Source: Centroscyllium fabricii (lineage: Eukaryota). Taken from it: DNA of 64,000 nt. A program made the position numbers and the translations under genes. Below the pieces are notes generated by a model that was given only the letters and a program-made list of their open reading frames with translations, did no database searches and was not told where the DNA came from. Positions 3,550 to 53,019 of this stretch are shown here, one piece after another (the stretch's first letter is position 1; the number at the start of each line of letters is the position of its first letter). The stretch is from positions 63,860,001 through 63,924,000 of the forward strand of contig JBNRSN020000024.1 of NCBI GenBank assembly GCA_051313645.2, written 5' to 3'.

Positions 3550-6500
3550 TGTTATGGTATTGAGACTTCCGGCAGGAAGTCGGATGAACTCTGCTTATGA
3601 ACTTCCAGTGACATCACTTCCTGTACATGTCACTTCCTGTGTAGTAGTATAAATTCTGCTACTATTCAGTCTGAGATAATGCTTCTCTATGTAAATATGT
3701 TAAAACTCTCAACTCTGTAAATAGTTGATTAAAGCTTTGCTTAAAGTATTTGATGTGTAAGTTGCTTTTGTCACATCAATTTAATCAGCTACTACACTCA
3801 AAATTTTTGAAACCTTCGGACAAAAAGGAACTGAGGACCCCAGGGAATCACCCATCATGGAGAGCCTCTTCAAACCCAGAACTCTTGACCTGGATCCGAA
3901 CTCACCATCAGCCGCAAAGGTATGGAAGCACTGGTACCATACTTTTGAAAATTTCCTGGAAGAATGTGGTGCGAGTGATACTGCTAAACTCCGGCTACTG
4001 GTAAACTATGTATCCCCTAACGTGTATGAATATCTGGACAATTGGGATAACTTTAATGAAGCAATCCGAGCTCTTAAAGAACTGTATACAAAGCCACCCA
4101 ACGAGATTTATGCTAGACATTTACTGGCCACGGCCCGGCAAGGGCCGGAGGAATCTATCGGTGAATTCCTGCAGACACTGCGCAGGCTCAGTACGAACTG
4201 GAACTTTCAGGCAGCCTCGGCCGCGCTTTACCGTGAGGAAATGATCCGCGATGCCTTCATCAGCGGGATTTCCTCCCCACTGATACGCCAGCGTCTACTG
4301 GAGAGTAAGGCCCTAGAGTTGCAAAAAGCTTTCGAACTGGCTTGCTCTCTTGATCTAGCAAAAAGAAACTCAGATCTTTATCAGTGGCCCAGAGCTCGAA
4401 GTGCTGCTGTAACTTCAAACAGACCTTTCAAGGGGCCACAGGTGAACCCAATCATAGACGACTCTAGCCCTGATGAGCTTAGTTATGAGGAGGAGGATGA
4501 CCCTACACTAGCAGCCTCTTGGCAGTCCAGGAAAAACTGCTTCTTTTGTGGAGATATCTTCCACCCAAGAAAATTCTGCCCAGCCCGTAATGCAATCTGC
4601 AGCTACTGCAGCAAAAAAGGGCACTTTGCAAAGGTGTGCCAATCCAGAACTTCTGCACGAGCTAATCAAGCTAGGCCCTACAGAGCTGCTCCAATTAGGG
4701 CCTACCAGGGTGCATCAATTAGGCCCTATCAAGACGCACCAGCCAGGACCTATCAGGCTCCCACTCGAAGGAGCTCGTCTAGAATCACTGCTGCACTCTG
4801 TGCTATCATGCCAATAACAGCTGCATGCCCTCAGAATCTGGTCCAGGCAGCCACAAGGGTCACAATTAATGGACATGCTGTTGATGCCCTAATTGACTCT
4901 GGTAGCACTGACAGCTTTATTAAGGGGCAAATCGTTAAAAAATTGAAACTGCACACTTATCCATCAGACCAGGCAATTGCAATGGCCCAATCTTCTCTTA
5001 ATACTAGAATCTCGGGCTTCTGTATTGTGGACTTAACCCTTAATGGGCGCCTGTATCCCTCCACCCGTCTATCAGTCCTTAAGGATCTATGTAGTGATCT
5101 CATTCTGGGACAAGATTTCCAAAGACAACATAACAAGCTGACCATTGAGTTCGGGGGTTCTAAACCCGGACTCATTATCTCTAAATCATCATCCAAAACG
5201 CCATTTTGTGCACTGTCAGCAGCCTCTCTGGACGAACCATCGTTATTTACCAGTGTTACGCCTCAGTGCAAGCCGATAATAACTAAGTCTCGGCGCTTTA
5301 GTCAGGAGGATCGATCCTTCATTAATACAGAAATCTCTCGACTCCTGGCCAAGGACATCATTGAACCTTGTTCATCGCCTTGGCGGGCTCAGATCGTCAT
5401 TGTTAAAAACTCTTTGAAACCTCAGAAGAAACGCCTATGTATCGATTACTCTCAGACCGTTAATCTATATACAGATTTGAATGCTTACCCACTGCCACGT
5501 ATCGATGACATGGTGAATAAACTGGCTGAATATTCTGTGTTTTCAACTTATGACCTGAAGAGTGCTTACCATCAGGTACCCCTATGGGCCTCGGATAAGA
5601 AATATACAGCCTTTGAGGCTAACGGACGATTGTATCAATTTTGCCATCTCCCATTCGGAGTCAACAACGGAGTAGCTGTCTTTCAACGAGCCATGGATGG
5701 CTTGGTGAAGCAAGAAGACTTGAGGGACACTTTCCCTTATCTCGACAATATTACGGTTGCTGGCCATGACCAACAAGAACATGACGACAACCTTCGAAGA
5801 TTTCGGGATGCACTTTATCGTCGCAACCTGACTTTAAATGAAACCAAATCCGTGGAATCACAGCCAACCATTAATATTCTCAGCTACTGTGTGGGTAATG
5901 GCATCATCAAGCCTGATCCTGAAAGACTTCGGCCCCTCCAGGAGCTTCCTCCACCTAACAGTCCTGCTTCCTTGCGTCGGGCCCTCGGCCTATTTGCCTA
6001 CTATGCGAAGTGGATTCCGGATTTTTCTGACAAAATTCAACCTTTGTTGAATGCCAGGACATTTCCATTAGGAACAACGGCCATTACAGCCTTTACTACC
6101 CTTAAACAACATTTGAAGACAGCAACCCTCCACTCCATCGATGAGAACCTCCCATTCGTGGTCGAATGTGACGCTTCAGAGGTGGCGATCTCAGCTACCC
6201 TCAATCAGGAAGGTCGCCCTGTAGCTTTCATGTCTAGGACCCTACAGGGTGCCGAAGTGCACTATCCACCGGTGGAAAAAGAAGCCACGGCCATCATTGA
6301 GGCTGTACGAAAATGGAACCATTTTGTAGCTCGCCGACACTTCACGCTGATAACGGACCAGCGATCAGTAGCGTTCATGCTGGACAACCGCAAGAGAACC
6401 AAAGTCAAGAACAATAAAATACAACTGTGGAGGATGGAATTGGCCTCTTTTGGCTATACTATTCACTATCGCCCTGGTAAAGATAATGTGGCCGCGGACA

Positions 6501-8164
6501 CGCTTACTCGAGCATTCTGCGCTGCTACATCACCCTCCACTCTGGCAGATATTCATGATGGATTATGTCATCCTGGTGTGACACGTATGTTACGTTTTGT
6601 AAGGTCACGAAATCTCCCATTCTCAACCGGAGACATCAAGAAAATGTGTTCAGAATGCAAAACCTGTGCTGAGCTAAAACCCCACTTTTTCCGGCCCCCG
6701 GATGGTGTACTTATACATGCGACACAACCAATGCAACGACTGAGCATTGATTTTAAGGGCCCAGTACCCTCGTCCACTAGGAACATATATCTGCTTACGA
6801 TGGTTGACGAATATTCACGTTTCCCATTCGCCTTCCCCTGCTCTAATATGCTGTCTTCCACAGTAATCAATTGTCTCGAGCAGGTATTCATGCTCTGTGG
6901 CATGCCAGCTTACATCCATTCAGATCGGGGTCCATCTTTCATGTCCACTGAACTTAAGGACTACCTCTCGGAAAGAGGTATCGCAACAAGCAAAACAACA
7001 CCATACCACCCCATCGGTAACGGCCAGGTAGAAAGATATAATGGCATCATATGGAACTCTGTACGCCTTGCCCTGAAATCCCAGGGTCTACCCAACCAGC
7101 AATGGGAGATGGTGTTACCAGATGCATTGCACTCCATATGGTCCTTGCTTTCCACAGCCACGAACACGACGCCTCATGAACGGTTCTTCAGTTTCCAGCG
7201 TCGCTCATCATATGGAGCATCACTCCCTTCATGGCTGACCACTCCAGGGCCCGTATTGCTCCGGAGATATGTCCGAACCTCCAAGCATGACCCTCTTGTG
7301 GATGAGGTAGAACTAACGGAGGTCAACCCCACCTACGCTCACATACGACACCCTGACGGACGAGAGTCTACAGTATCATTGCGGGACCTGGCACCCTGCC
7401 CATCAGGACCTAGAGGGTCATCTAGGGATAATACCCTACCGGGAACCTCCAGAGAACCACTGGGTACCACTCTTCAGGACCCCGATCAGGCACCAATGAC
7501 CTTTGAGCCGGTAGGATCCCGCACTCGGAGCTTCGACTCACCTGGTACCTCATTCCAGGATGCTGCTCAATCCTCGACTGACACGGAGCCCATAGGGGCT
7601 CGTACGCGGAGTCATGATCCTCCCAGTGCCCCACGCCAAAATGCCAATGGGCCATCGACAAGCTTGGTACCTTCTCCCGACCAAGGGCAGATCAACTCTG
7701 AACCTGTTGGATCTCGCACACGGAACCATGATTTCCACAACCCATCGCCGGGTAATCCAGGCCATGTTGGATTTGACCCAGATTCGAAGACCCGCAAACG
7801 GCCCAGTAACTCAGACATTGACCATCAAGACAGTCTACCAACCCAAGAGAGCGAACTTAAACGTATGCGGCTCCTCCTCATACATCTACTTCAGAATATT
7901 TGATTTCTGCCTCATAATCTTCTAGGAGGGAAGAATGTAATGATATTGAGACTTCCGGCAGGAAGTCGGATGAACTCTGCTTATGAACTTCCAGTGACAT
8001 CACTTCCTGTACATGTCACTTCCTGTGTAGTAGTATAAATTCTGCTACTATTCAGTCTGAGATAATGCTTCTCTATGTAAATATGTTAAAACTCTCAACT
8101 CTGTAAATAGCTGATTAAAGCTTTGCTTAAAGTATTTGATGTGTAAGTTGCTTTTGTCACATCA
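3550..8164 (+). mobile_element. Full-length Ty3/Gypsy LTR retrotransposon
   Basis: Two 229-bp TG..CA LTRs (3550-3778 and 7936-8164) show 3 differences by eye. There is a 5-bp TSD GCCGG, a polypurine tract AGGAGGGAAGAA at 7924-7935, and a single gag-pol ORF. Confidence 0.97.
3857..7903 (+). CDS. Gypsy gag-pol polyprotein (1348 aa)
   Basis: Domains in PR-RT-RH-IN order: two CCHC-type knuckles (CFFCGDIFHPRKFC, CSYCSKKGHFAKVC), protease LIDSGS, RT (YDLKSAYHQ, LPFGV, YLDN), RNase H (ECDAS, TDQRS), and integrase HHCC plus D,D,E (SIDFKG, HSDRG, GQVER). Confidence 0.95.
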   Translation: MESLFKPRTLDLDPNSPSAAKVWKHWYHTFENFLEECGASDTAKLRLLVNYVSPNVYEYLDNWDNFNEAIRALKELYTKPPNEIYARHLLATARQGPEESIGEFLQTLRRLSTNWNFQAASAALYREEMIRDAFISGISSPLIRQRLLESKALELQKAFELACSLDLAKRNSDLYQWPRARSAAVTSNRPFKGPQVNPIIDDSSPDELSYEEEDDPTLAASWQSRKNCFFCGDIFHPRKFCPARNAICSYCSKKGHFAKVCQSRTSARANQARPYRAAPIRAYQGASIRPYQDAPARTYQAPTRRSSSRITAALCAIMPITAACPQNLVQAATRVTINGHAVDALIDSGSTDSFIKGQIVKKLKLHTYPSDQAIAMAQSSLNTRISGFCIVDLTLNGRLYPSTRLSVLKDLCSDLILGQDFQRQHNKLTIEFGGSKPGLIISKSSSKTPFCALSAASLDEPSLFTSVTPQCKPIITKSRRFSQEDRSFINTEISRLLAKDIIEPCSSPWRAQIVIVKNSLKPQKKRLCIDYSQTVNLYTDLNAYPLPRIDDMVNKLAEYSVFSTYDLKSAYHQVPLWASDKKYTAFEANGRLYQFCHLPFGVNNGVAVFQRAMDGLVKQEDLRDTFPYLDNITVAGHDQQEHDDNLRRFRDALYRRNLTLNETKSVESQPTINILSYCVGNGIIKPDPERLRPLQELPPPNSPASLRRALGLFAYYAKWIPDFSDKIQPLLNARTFPLGTTAITAFTTLKQHLKTATLHSIDENLPFVVECDASEVAISATLNQEGRPVAFMSRTLQGAEVHYPPVEKEATAIIEAVRKWNHFVARRHFTLITDQRSVAFMLDNRKRTKVKNNKIQLWRMELASFGYTIHYRPGKDNVAADTLTRAFCAATSPSTLADIHDGLCHPGVTRMLRFVRSRNLPFSTGDIKKMCSECKTCAELKPHFFRPPDGVLIHATQPMQRLSIDFKGPVPSSTRNIYLLTMVDEYSRFPFAFPCSNMLSSTVINCLEQVFMLCGMPAYIHSDRGPSFMSTELKDYLSERGIATSKTTPYHPIGNGQVERYNGIIWNSVRLALKSQGLPNQQWEMVLPDALHSIWSLLSTATNTTPHERFFSFQRRSSYGASLPSWLTTPGPVLLRRYVRTSKHDPLVDEVELTEVNPTYAHIRHPDGRESTVSLRDLAPCPSGPRGSSRDNTLPGTSREPLGTTLQDPDQAPMTFEPVGSRTRSFDSPGTSFQDAAQSSTDTEPIGARTRSHDPPSAPRQNANGPSTSLVPSPDQGQINSEPVGSRTRNHDFHNPSPGNPGHVGFDPDSKTRKRPSNSDIDHQDSLPTQESELKRMRLLLIHLLQNI

Positions 8165-16653: not shown

Positions 16654-18138
16654 TGACGTATCTGTAAGGGAATGGTAATGGATCTGGTGAGCGGGGCCCA
16701 AATGCAGAAACACTGAGAAACCGTCTTGATACAAAACCCCTTTAATCTAACAAAACATGTTTTGAATAAGACATAATTCTAGACACAAGTCTTTGGCTAA
16801 AGACAGGCACTTACTTTAGCGTTATTATGAAAACCCTAGAGGCAGAATATTAACAAGTCCTCCTCCGAACCAGACAGGCTTTCTACTGGGCGTGGAACCC
16901 TTTAAACCGACCACAACCCCAGAGAGGATCAAGCCTTAGTGGAACATGTTATCATGACCACTTCCATCAGAGAGGAACAAGTTCTACGCAGCCAAGTAAT
17001 AGAGTAGCTAACATACAACAGGGTCTAATAACAACAGATAATGAACAGTCCAATTATGAAGGTAGAATGCAATGATGTCCAGCTCCTCTGTTCCACCACA
17101 GAGACTTAACCCCATGGTAACAAACAGGAAAGAGAATTCCTGATCTTCCTAACAGATGTCCAAACCTCGGTTCGGGTGAATTAAGCCAATGTCCAAGGAG
17201 TAGAAATGAGTCCGTCCTACTTCTTCTGCTCCACCACGGAGACTTAACCCCATGGCATCAGGCAGTAGCGCACCAGATCCACTGGCCCAACAGATGAGTG
17301 TCCATGTCTGAGTCCCAGATAGCAGGGTACTATGTCAAGACGGAGTGATGTGGGCTCGGTCCCATAGTCCCTCTTAAGTCCACTCAGAGAAGCAGAGCAA
17401 TCCCTTCTGCTTCTTTTCTATCCAGTGAAGTGTGATATAGTAGAAACTCCTGCAATGATCCCACAACCTGTCTGGTCAAACCATGAGCTAATAAACCCAA
17501 ACCAGCCTAATCAGATGATTGATGTTGACCAATCAGGGTGCAGGCAAATACAAACAGAAAACACCTGGTTGTGAACAACCCAATTGATACACTAACCCAC
17601 ACATAGAACAACACTTAGAACCAAAATGGGAACCCAAACCATGGGCTAATAAACCCAAACCAGCCTAATCAGATGATTGATGTTGACCAATCAGGGTGCA
17701 GGCATATACAAACAGAAAACACCTGGTTGTGAACAACCCAATTGATACACTTAACCCACATAGAACAACACTTAGAACCAAAATGGGAACATTAAAGGGA
17801 TATGCCCAAATAAAACATGGATGCCTTTAAAGGGGCATGCCAAACTGTGACAGTATCGTCTATCAAAACACGAAAGACGAGTAGTTACCCAAACTACAGG
17901 CTTTTATTCACTTATAATGGAGCTAGTCTCCTGTCGAGTTCAAGGCGAGAATGAGCGGGGGCAGGGCGGCCCTCACCTATAACCTCCCACCTGAGGGGAG
18001 GAGTTAGAGGTGTGGCTGACCTGGCCTTGCACACAATGTACAGAGTTGGAGGTGGATACATCCATATATATACACACAATGTACAGAGCTGCCGGTGAAC
18101 ACATTCATATATACACACTGGTAATTACGGTTACCACA
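16654..18138 (-). mobile_element. Solo LTR (about 290 bp net) hosting a second LTR
   Basis: Minus-strand termini TGTGGTAA..GTCA with a TSD GTTTC (16649-16653 and 18139-18143). TATA and AATAAA signals are present. Similar to 27443-27720 and 38800-39065. Confidence 0.85.
16663..17852 (-). mobile_element. Long solo LTR (1190 bp) nested in the shorter LTR
   Basis: TG..CA termini with a TSD GTATC (16658-16662 and 17853-17857). It contains an internal 158-bp tandem duplication. The strand is inferred. Confidence 0.8.
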
Positions 18139-27156: not shown

Positions 27157-28183
27157 GGGGGAAAAATTTGGTTCCTTGCGCCAGCCGTTAGCGCCCTAAG
27201 AGGGCTGCTAATAGCGCCTGGGCTGGCATCTCCCGTCATATTTAGTGTAACGCTGGCGGCGGCAGCAGCTGGTAGCGTCCTGTGGCGCTGCGCCAGCGGC
27301 GATGACGTCATCGCCGTGCGCAGCGCCTCGCTCGCGCCCCAGCCTTGAACTTCAGCCGCGCCCCCTGACGTAGCGCCAGACACTGTCTCTGACAGGGATC
27401 AGTCGACTAGCATGGGCATGCTCATGTCTTAGTGAATAAAATTGATGCCTAATCAATAACTTCAAAGACTAGAAGTTGAGGAGTGAACTATAGGCTTTTA
27501 TTCACTAAGACATGAGCATGCCCATGCTAGTCGACTGATCCCAGAATGATTGGGGGAGGGAGACAGTCACCTTTCTACCTGGGTCCGAGGAGGAGGAGCC
27601 GCAGGCGGGGTCAGCACGGGCATGCCCGGACAAGCTACACATGAAAGGCTATGTACATTACAGCGGAGGTCACACACAATGCATACGGTTACATACATAT
27701 ATATACAGTGGTTTACCACAAGGGGGACACAGTTGCAACCGGGCCAGTGCTATTTAAAGGAGGGGGTGGGTGTGCCGGGCGGCCATTTTTCTTGCTCGCC
27801 GCCTGCCAGCACCTGCCCCCTCTGCCGTCCCCAGCCTTCCCCGATGCCCCCCTGCGGAGTGCTGGCTGTGCTCCGTGAGCCCGGCACTTCCCTCGAGTGC
27901 CGGCTCCTTGGCCGACACTCCAATCCCCAGCAGTCCAGCGGGGCTCCGGGCTGCGCCGCGCTAGGCCACTCCCCTTTAAGAAGGGGAGGGAGGCCTGCAG
28001 TACCGCGGCGCGCCGTGCTGCAGAGCGTGGCGCAGCGACACACAGTGGCCCGAACTTCAGTTGCTACGCCCAAGGAACGAGATGGGGCGCTATACCCAAT
28101 TTAAGGTGCAACGGCGCTAACTTTTTCGGGGCGCTAATTTCTGAGGTTAGCATCCCAAACAGGGCGCAACACAATTTTCCCCC
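27157..28183. mobile_element. Harbinger-type MITE
   Basis: Terminal inverted repeats GGGGGAAAAATTTG / CAATTTTCCCCC with a TSD AAT. Internally similar to 52254-53019. Confidence 0.8.
27398..27720 (-). mobile_element. LTR (27443-27720) followed by a self-complementary extension
   Basis: Minus-strand TGTGGTAAAC..GCATCA, same family as 38800-39065. AGGG flanks both sides (27394-27397 and 27721-27724). Confidence 0.85.
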
Positions 28184-38084: not shown

Positions 38085-39210
38085 AAACAACAACAACAAC
38101 TTGCATTTATAAAGCATTATCAAACAAAATTTGACACTGCACCACATAAAGAGATATTAGAAGAGGTGACCCAAAGTCTGGTCAAAGAGGTAGGTATTAA
38201 GGAGCATCTTAAAGGAAGAGAGAGAGAGGTGGAGAGCTTTAGGGAGGGAATTCCAGAGCTTAACGTCGAGGCAGCTGAAGATATAGAAACATAGAAACAT
38301 GGAAGATAGGAGCAGGAGTAGGCCATTCAGCCCTTCGAGCCTGCTCCGCCATTCAATGAGATCATGGCTGATCATCCGAACCCAGTACCCAATCCCTGCT
38401 TTCTCCCCATATCCCGTGATCGCTATCGAGCCTGCACCGACACATATCCCACCCTATCCCCGTAACCCCACATATTCAATCCCCCCTAACCCTAAGGGTC
38501 AATTTATCCTGGCCAATCAACCTAACCCGCACATCTTTGGCCGCAAATGGTAGGGCGAAGGGAGTCAGGGATGTGCAAGAAGTCAGAATTGGCTGGAGGA
38601 GATTACAGAGATAGGGAGGGGCAAGGCCATGGAGGGATTTGAAAACCAGGATGAGAATTTTAACATCAAGCCGTTGCCAAACCGAGATTCAATGTCGATC
38701 AGCAAGTGCTGGGGTGAGGGGTGAAGGGGACTTGGTGTGAGTTAGGGTACAAGTTTTGGATCAGGTCAAGTTTATGGAGGGTAGAAAACGGGAGACTGGT
38801 GTGGTAAACCACTTTGTACATATATCTGTATCATATCCATGGCCTGTAACATTGTATATAGTTCTGTGTGTACTGCTTGTCTGGGCATGCCCATGCTAAC
38901 CCCGCCTGTGACTCCTCCTCCCAGGACAGGTATAAAGGTGACTGTCTCCCTCCCCCCATTCATTCCGGGAGCAGTCGACTAGCTGGGGCATGCCCAACCT
39001 TTAGCGAATAAAAGCCTTTATTCACCTCGGAACTTCTCGTCTCCGAGGTCATTGATACGGTATCAACCGGCCAGTAGAGCATTGGGACCGTCAAGTCCAG
39101 AGGTAACAAAGGCGTGGATGAGGATTTAAGCTGCAGATGAGCTGAGGCAGGGATGGAGATGGGTGATGTTACGGAGGTAGAAGTAGGTGGTCTTTGTGAT
39201 GGAGCGGATA
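38085..39210 (-). mobile_element. L2 LINE 3' region interrupted by a truncated V-SINE (38281-38540) and a solo LTR
   Basis: The minus strand reads KLWNSLP..SSFKMLLNTYLFDQ and ends ATAAATGCAAG(TTG)n. Confidence 0.75.
38800..39065 (+). mobile_element. Solo LTR
   Basis: TGTGGTAAAC..GTATCA with TATAAA at 38931 and AATAAA at about 39007. The TSD is ACTGG/ACCGG. Confidence 0.85.
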
Positions 39211-52253: not shown

Positions 52254-53019
52254 AGCTAGAAATTAGCTGTCCTGCGCCTGCCCGTTAGCAACCAAAAATG
52301 GCGCTAACAGGGCGCAAGACACTTAGCGCCAGCGCTTGCGCCTACCACGAAATTCAGTGAGGCGCTAAGGTGGGCGGTAACCGGTAGCGCCCTACTGAAT
52401 TTTTCGTGCTGCTGGCTGATGGGAATGATGTCATCAGTGCGCACAGCGCCATTCTGGTGCCCGCGACTGAAATTGGGCCGCGCCCGCTGAGTTTTCAGCG
52501 GGCGCTGACCACGACAGCTTTTTCTGGCCATAAGAACAGCGGGGGAGCACTGCTTAAAGGGGAGGGTGCCGGTCGGCCATTTTTATTGCTGGCCGACTGC
52601 CAGCACCTTCCCCCTCTGCCTCCCCCGGCACCCCCCGCTGCTGCCCCCGCGGTGTCAGGCCTCCGACCACTGAGCCCGGCACTTCCCTCCACTGCCAGGC
52701 TCCTTCTGCTGAATGTCGTCCCACGGCGGCCCCGCGGGGCTCCGGCCGCAGCCGCGCTCGGCCCCTCCACTTTAATCGGGGAGGGAGGCCTGCAGGAAGG
52801 CCGCCACTCTGCACTGCGTGGCGCAGCGACCCCCAGCGCCCGGAACTTTGACTGCAGCGCCCTAAGAACGAGGGTGGGCGCGTGTTTTAGCGCCCGCCCT
52901 CCTACTATGGGTGATACAGGGGAATTTTAGCGCTAACGGCTCCAGCGAATAGCTGCCGCTAAAAATAACGCTGCGCCGAGGTTGGCGCCAGAAAACGTGG
53001 GCGAGCCAATTTTTCCCCC
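52254..53019. mobile_element. GC-rich Harbinger-type MITE
   Basis: Termini CTAGAAATT / AATTTTTCCCCC. Internal homology to 27157-28183. Confidence 0.7.

Follow-up and report, generated by a model that had tools for sequence, protein, structure and literature searches.

A fold-back beside a Gypsy LTR in Centroscyllium fabricii: a probable DNA record of a long RNA self-primer

Introduction

How did a single Gypsy LTR come to be followed, just past its CA end, by an inverted copy of its own interior? This question is raised by one locus of the window, i.e. the whole stretch of 64,000 nucleotides that was analysed. The initial annotation offered two answers: a 47-nt self-priming stem, or a hairpin-extended DNA of the strong-stop type that had inserted alone as a one-LTR unit. 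The locus is a dead one-LTR Gypsy insertion without sign of function, and such a by-product is of value for what it tells about priming.

Structure of the locus

The locus interrupts a GC-rich host repeat and is composed of the following features.

27157..27394, no strand assigned: GC-rich host repeat, the half lying downstream of the insertion
27395..27402, minus strand: microhomology CTGATCCC common to the arm end and the host target (CTGACCC), a non-integrase junction
27395..27427, minus strand: abnormal mirror extension of 33 nt (LTR 211 back to 179)
27428..27442, minus strand: spacer A and normal 14-nt self-complementary primer-binding site (PBS) of Gypsy family 1
27443..27720, minus strand: Gypsy LTR of 278 bp, TGTGG...CATCA, U3-R-U5, matching at 98-99% the LTRs of gag-pol-bearing copies
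27496..27509, minus strand: 14-nt LTR site pairing with the PBS, containing AATAAA (27502..27497)
27496..27547, minus strand: predicted RNA self-primer, LTR 174-225, 52 nt long from cap to cut or 56 nt if counted from the upstream A, deduced from the arm-length boundary
27547..27551, minus strand: initiator-like A residues at LTR 170 (TATA+26) and LTR 174 (TATA+30), the predicted transcription start
27572..27577, minus strand: TATA position, LTR 144-149, TAGAAA in the locus copy and TATAAA in its relatives
27721..28090, no strand assigned: GC-rich host repeat, the half lying upstream of the insertion, with a precise TG junction after CCCCT

The geometry initially described is exact. Positions 27395-27441 are the reverse complement of 27496-27542 at 47 of 47 bases, with a spacer of 54 nt, and the arm begins one base (27442) past the CA of the minus-strand LTR 27720..27443. 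It mirrors LTR 179-225, a stretch beginning 35 nt past the first T of the TATA position and taking in AATAAAA. The predicted start was placed with an initiator (Inr) consensus and a TATA spacing that we assume to hold for this element; position 27575, inside the TATA position, deviates in almost all the public contigs compared.

The solo-LTR form, a plain CA end followed by a target site duplication (TSD), is absent here: the arm follows the CA, without TSD. The AGGG flank had been taken for such a duplication, a reading that the empty site contradicts. Both flanks are contiguous in 19 of 19 other host-repeat copies (approximately CCCCT-GACCC-TGTC), with CCCT present twice; AGGG is made up of host sequence and microhomology. 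The arm ends in 8 nt (CTGATCCC) that overlap the host CTGACCC, leaving 39-47 nt of element-derived arm, and no host sequence was lost at insertion by comparison with the empty copies. The host repeat itself is abundant (4,627 candidates), is found in the window at 27157-28090 and 52566-52881, and contains an internal palindrome near 27284-27327.

The normal junction of the Gypsy family

The LTR end of the locus, searched as an exact 17-mer in the 7.2 Gb genome, occurs 6,046 times. Nine of the ten family-1 5' LTRs read with internal sequence carry an A followed by the 14-nt complement of LTR 212-225; in these normal copies (9/10 read) the gag ATG comes 8-9 nt after the mirror, and the exact 14-bp junction was counted 612 times genome-wide. 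The proposal of a 47-nt self-priming stem has to be abandoned on these data, full-length members having a 14-bp mirror and then gag. The ends TGTGG...CATCA, the polypurine tract (PPT) AAGCAAGGGGTGAA before the 3' LTR and the 5-bp TSDs are those of Ty3/Gypsy elements. In one copy, L069, ORFs and Pfam matches display the order gag-protease-RT-RNase H-integrase between two direct LTRs, and no chromodomain was matched by Pfam at E 0.1 in its integrase ORF. The gag read in a family-1 copy has a zinc knuckle and presumably resembles the Mag-like gag.

A sister subfamily, 1b, is represented in the window by the LTR that served as reference for the 1b arm-length test.

38800..39065, plus strand: solo LTR of sister subfamily 1b

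The 1b mirror, read in 30 of 2,087 junctions, is again 14 bp long and is perfect in 23 of the 30. Two compensatory changes distinguish it from the family-1 mirror, both sides being altered together. Two solo LTRs of the window had been described as sisters of the locus with 5-bp TSDs. The kinship holds for 38800-39065 (76% identical), whose duplication agrees at only 4 of 5 bases (ACTGG/ACCGG); conversely, the element at 16654-18138 does not align to family 1 and its TSD is perfect (GTTTC). The latter is a solo-LTR-like element of 1,485 bp on the minus strand, TGTGGTAACC...GATACGTCA.

The usual sequence criterion for self-priming LTR elements, as given in passages of PMC6317226, is a post-LTR sequence of at least 10 nt complementary to the LTR, together with the absence of a tRNA PBS. 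In family 1 this complement measures 14 bp, the sequence has no TGG start, and no tRNA was matched by Rfam around the normal 5' LTR. The predicted fold of the 5' RNA combines the 14-bp LTR/PBS duplex with an adjoining U5 helix, at a weak z of -1.9. By this criterion family 1 is self-priming, with a stem of 14 bp and not 47.

Recurrence and length of the extended mirrors

A 30-nt pattern spanning the extended-mirror junction, which detects arms of at least 18 nt and, accepting exact matches only, under-counts old copies, was found 41 times genome-wide in family 1; the reversed control gave 0. In 1b, 72 extended mirrors were found. The extended forms represent 41/653 junctions in family 1 and 72/~2087 in 1b, or 3-6%. 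A few copies are not independent (L050-052; L058/059; L209/210; L163/L186/L191, which jump at one ~10-nt homology). The idea that other LTR and fold-back insertions exist is borne out by these 113 related junctions, which have differing flanks, diverged arms, TSDs and always the same PBS register. They likewise support the second initial answer, a one-LTR insertion of strong-stop-like DNA. The opposite possibility, a unique event in a family with an ordinary tRNA PBS, is at odds with both the recurrence and the lack of a tRNA-type PBS.

All the arms were read. In family 1, 19 of 41 reach the U3 start or go beyond and 22 are truncated; among the latter, 17 measure at most 52 nt, none 53-71 nt and five 72-216 nt. 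The arm ceiling of 1b was forecast from family 1 before the 1b arms were searched. In 1b, 23 of 72 arms are full and 49 truncated, 36 of these at or below 57 nt (15 at 49-53 nt), none at 58-68 nt and 13 at 69-187 nt. When the 1b arms are binned, 20 fall at 44-53 nt, against 4 at 54-63 nt and 4 at 34-43 nt (p = 8e-4 each). Long arms with indels were scored by BLAST, since ungapped scoring against the own LTR shortens them; the ungapped scoring left out 16/72 and 10/38 loci with damaged motifs. The 1b arm lengths peak at a boundary and follow neither a decay from the loop nor a uniform deletion. Most truncated arms do not run past the predicted transcription start; the longest ones (13 in 1b and 5 in family 1, for 71 truncated arms in total) require an extension route. 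The family-1 arms peak at 39-49 nt, below the boundary, and 52 nt is reached by 1 of its 17 short arms. An extra C, the trace that a copied cap might leave, follows 2 of 4 arms of 52 nt and speaks neither for nor against cap copying.

Jumps, target site duplications and palindromes

Eleven of the 17 short arms of family 1 continue as sequence of the element, joined at scattered points and in either orientation. In eight short-arm units the far end is U5 or the 3' LTR end, and each is bounded by a perfect 5-bp TSD.

Short-arm units with a U5 or 3' LTR end and a perfect 5-bp TSD: L020, L032, L038, L062, L185, L199, L201, L223

Jumps back into the element and terminal perfect 5-bp TSDs, seen in many short arms, mean that these arms were formed before integration; palindrome deletion cannot produce the eight units listed.

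A two-base allele at LTR 196-197 provides a further clue. Arm and own LTR carry different versions of it in two short-arm copies (L034, L068) and four long-arm copies (L054, L061, L058, L050), and the same version in 24 copies; in L061 the U3 parts of arm and LTR differ at only one site. Such discordance is expected if the arm comes from the 5' end of the RNA, because the R of the LTR would come from its 3' end, and an arm allele absent from the own LTR cannot be explained by a fold-back in cis. In 1b, a discordant R allele was found in 0 of 2 informative copies. The mismatch between arm and LTR is similar for short and full arms (22/928 versus 25/702, p = 0.18) and is no higher in R than in U3.

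Palindromes of ~470-505 bp constitute another class. They consist of a whole LTR, an A and an inverted copy of the LTR reaching as far as the U3 start, with TG...CA at both ends, and each has its own perfect 5-bp TSD.

Family-1 palindromes, 11 in a 30-locus set biased to long arms: L002, L006, L007, L009, L013, L014, L015, L017, L021, L023, L026
1b palindromes, 7: L172, L173, L178, L204, L213, L214, L218

These units have no PPT or second direct R, and derive from several LTR variants. In seven other loci (L046, L058, L059, L179, L187, L189, L195) the arm passes the U3 start into the PPT and then internal sequence; such arms were likely templated by the 3' end of the RNA rather than by their own strand.

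Other elements of the window

A Gypsy of another family, family 2, occupies 3550-8164, with a single ORF of 1,348 aa, LTRs of 229 bp and a GCCGG TSD. Its geometry is that of family 1, with a 12-nt mirror over ATTAAA, and no chromodomain was detected in its polyprotein (Pfam, E 0.001). Short arms were found in 0 of 33 matches of this family, in which full arms and other junction products are present. A transcription start at the paired site could account for the missing short arms of family 2, or the short-arm class may lack generality.

Several family-2 products deserve description on their own. Seven of 30 loci have in common a structure of ~850 bp, made of an LTR, an inverted LTR/PPT segment and an LTR with identical breakpoints, which suggests a TRIM-like family that arose from a fold-back and is spreading. 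Other single-LTR units run from U3-R to the cut site, continue with T and an inverted U5, and have 5-bp TSDs; they are the primer/minus-strand junction fixed in DNA. Three full-length copies (L115, L122, L123) have a mirror of 17 nt versus 12. A tandem array with a 66-bp period was also observed at 6-731 of the window.

Family-2 structures of ~850 bp, one with its middle flipped: L100, L106, L108, L110, L112, L118, L120
Family-2 T and inverted-U5 units of identical structure: L107, L111, L114, L116, L124, L128, L232
Further family-2 T and inverted-U5 units: L099, L103, L105, L109, L117

Proposed mechanism and alternatives

We consider it probable that the arm of the locus was copied into DNA from the RNA primer of the element itself; this primer is predicted to begin at the cap, to end at a cut just after AATAAAA and to measure 52-56 nt. 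By analogy with Tf1, the element RNA would fold and be cut after LTR 225, and its 5' fragment would prime minus-strand DNA while pairing by its last 14 nt only. With starts at LTR 170 and 174, this cut gives a fragment of 56 or 52 nt. The synthesis of plus-strand strong-stop DNA would then pass U5 and continue along the attached primer to the 5' end of the RNA, and without a modified tRNA base nothing would halt this copying. As in Ty3, the plus strand that had copied the primer would be displaced as a by-product. Its over-long 3' end would fit the PBS poorly, with three possible outcomes. Being complementary to R, it may jump to U5 or internal sequence. It may instead anneal to R, either its own or that of the RNA 3' end, and be extended through U3, giving two-U3 palindromes with clean TSDs or arms past the PPT. 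Finally, the unit may be inserted unchanged, its U3 end by integrase and its primer end by host repair. The locus would fit this last outcome, with host repair at the 8-nt microhomology. The observed elements of this scheme are the 14-bp duplex, the arm ceiling, the jumps, the TSDs and the allele discordance. Precedents for its parts can be found in sections of three papers: the 3' end of Tf1 cDNA retains a primer-site copy (PMC11042837), Ty3 yields a displaced, dead-end plus-strand strong-stop DNA (PMC5371799), and insertions with one end joined by integrase and the other by the host are described (PMC5041404).

The initial notion of a hairpin-extended DNA needs to be refined in this respect, a copy of the RNA primer being more likely for the short arms than an extension of the hairpin on its own strand. 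The extension variant supposes a short primer of 14 nt similar to that of Tf1, whose self-primer is 11 nt long; the displaced strong-stop DNA would snap back at the PBS, extend itself and stall around LTR 170-185. The 42 of 113 arms that reach the U3 end, many of them stopping exactly there as palindromes with TSDs, imply that extension through U3 does occur, and a C-run located 5-10 nt beyond the arm-length boundary could pause the reverse transcriptase. At the locus the arm is identical to its own LTR, which speaks for snap-back and, together with the absence of a clean TSD, against a primer copy. The family-1 peak below the boundary, the missing short arms of family 2, the even mismatch of R and U3 and the lack of a discordant R allele in 1b also weigh against a primer copy. 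The extension variant is nevertheless unlikely: the arms end 5-10 nt short of the C-run, at the Inr, no TATA is present 25-30 nt upstream of LTR 212, and arms with an allele missing from their own LTR are not copyable in cis.

A little less likely still is a later loss. The insertion would first have been larger, either a complete 504-bp palindrome or a defective element of greater length, flanked by a CCCCT TSD, and most of its right part would have disappeared by microhomology deletion. The 8-nt microhomology of the junction, the lack of a clean TSD and the arm deletions seen in several palindromes agree with this scenario, long inverted repeats being prone to deletion; against it, under random deletion the short class should contain 3.7 of 22 and 10.4 of 49 ends, whereas 17 and 36 were observed, and the host sequence is intact at the locus. 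It is very improbable that the locus is a one-off repair inversion or an artefact of assembly. The public contigs, from four runs, do not bridge the locus, a point in favour of this reading; the same junction is nonetheless found at 41 and 72 places with different flanks, diverged arms, TSDs and a constant PBS register.

Returning to the copied primer, the balance of the evidence tips slightly towards a more general proposal: an animal Gypsy outside the chromoviruses would prime with a long, capped 5' RNA fragment of 52-56 nt cut beside the poly(A) signal. Read-through of this primer would leave several percent of the products as fossils, including two-U3 palindromes inserted by integrase with clean TSDs, and these fossils would map the start and cut sites from genome sequence alone. 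The hairpin locus would then be one of more than 100 copying accidents, through which the genome likely records an unusually long self-primer of ~50 bases. If this is true, the long primer of a Gypsy devoid of chromodomain represents a second self-priming design, and the question is raised of how plus-strand transfer is completed when nothing stops the copying of the primer. The by-products, at 3-6% of the junctions, would offer a genome-only readout of primer ends. They also illustrate a route from an LTR element to palindromes bounded by terminal inverted repeats, which would give hairpin RNA if transcribed.

Comparison with known systems

In the openly accessible literature covered, no long self-primer, self-priming of a non-chromovirus animal Gypsy or two-U3 palindrome was found; the portions of PMC6934838, PMC3601003 and PMC12440569 consulted contain nothing on a long-primer geometry. 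Descriptions of self-priming in Gypsy elements (bioRxiv 2022.12.06.519325, PMC6317226) concern the Tf1/sushi chromoviruses, whose short primer is located at the 5' end of the RNA. Family 1 resembles Tf1/Tf2 and the Tf1/sushi group, as presented in passages of bioRxiv 2022.12.06.519325, by the absence of a tRNA PBS, by a sequence next to the 5' LTR that pairs with the LTR-derived portion of the transcript, and by the neighbouring helix of its predicted fold, which recalls the Tf1 'pretzel'. In the Tf1 type, however, the paired primer is the extreme RNA 5' end according to the same passages, whereas motifs and arm lengths place the 14 paired nt of family 1 over AATAAA, 38-42 nt past the predicted start; a primer paired at this site would therefore have a long unpaired 5' part. 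Judging from its sequence, family 1 would work like the Tf1/sushi self-priming elements, and it is not filed among them in view of the absent chromodomain and the predicted primer position.

The dead-end strong-stop DNA of Ty1/Ty3 offers another parallel, the first plus strand copying the primer and being displaced there too (parts of PMC5371799). The Ty1/Ty3 primer is a tRNA of which 12 nt are copied, and genomic insertion of the product is not reported in section 2.2 of that paper; in families 1 and 1b, by contrast, the copy is self-complementary, reaches ~52 nt and is fixed at 113 genomic places. The one-ended integration of ASLV and HIV-1, in the relevant parts of PMC5041404, likewise combines a normal end with an end joined by the host and often truncated, and the aberrant end may join element sequence in either orientation, as here. 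Those viral cases follow mutation or drug treatment, whereas the present copies belong to a natural germ-line retrotransposon.

Lastly, TRIMs and MITE-like fold-backs are also short non-autonomous units with TSDs, and the 504-bp palindromes share with them terminal inverted repeats. Unlike a MITE-like family, made of near-identical copies of one master, the copies studied here differ from one another in arm lengths, jumps and LTR variants. The palindromes thus look like by-products formed repeatedly, rather than a spreading family.
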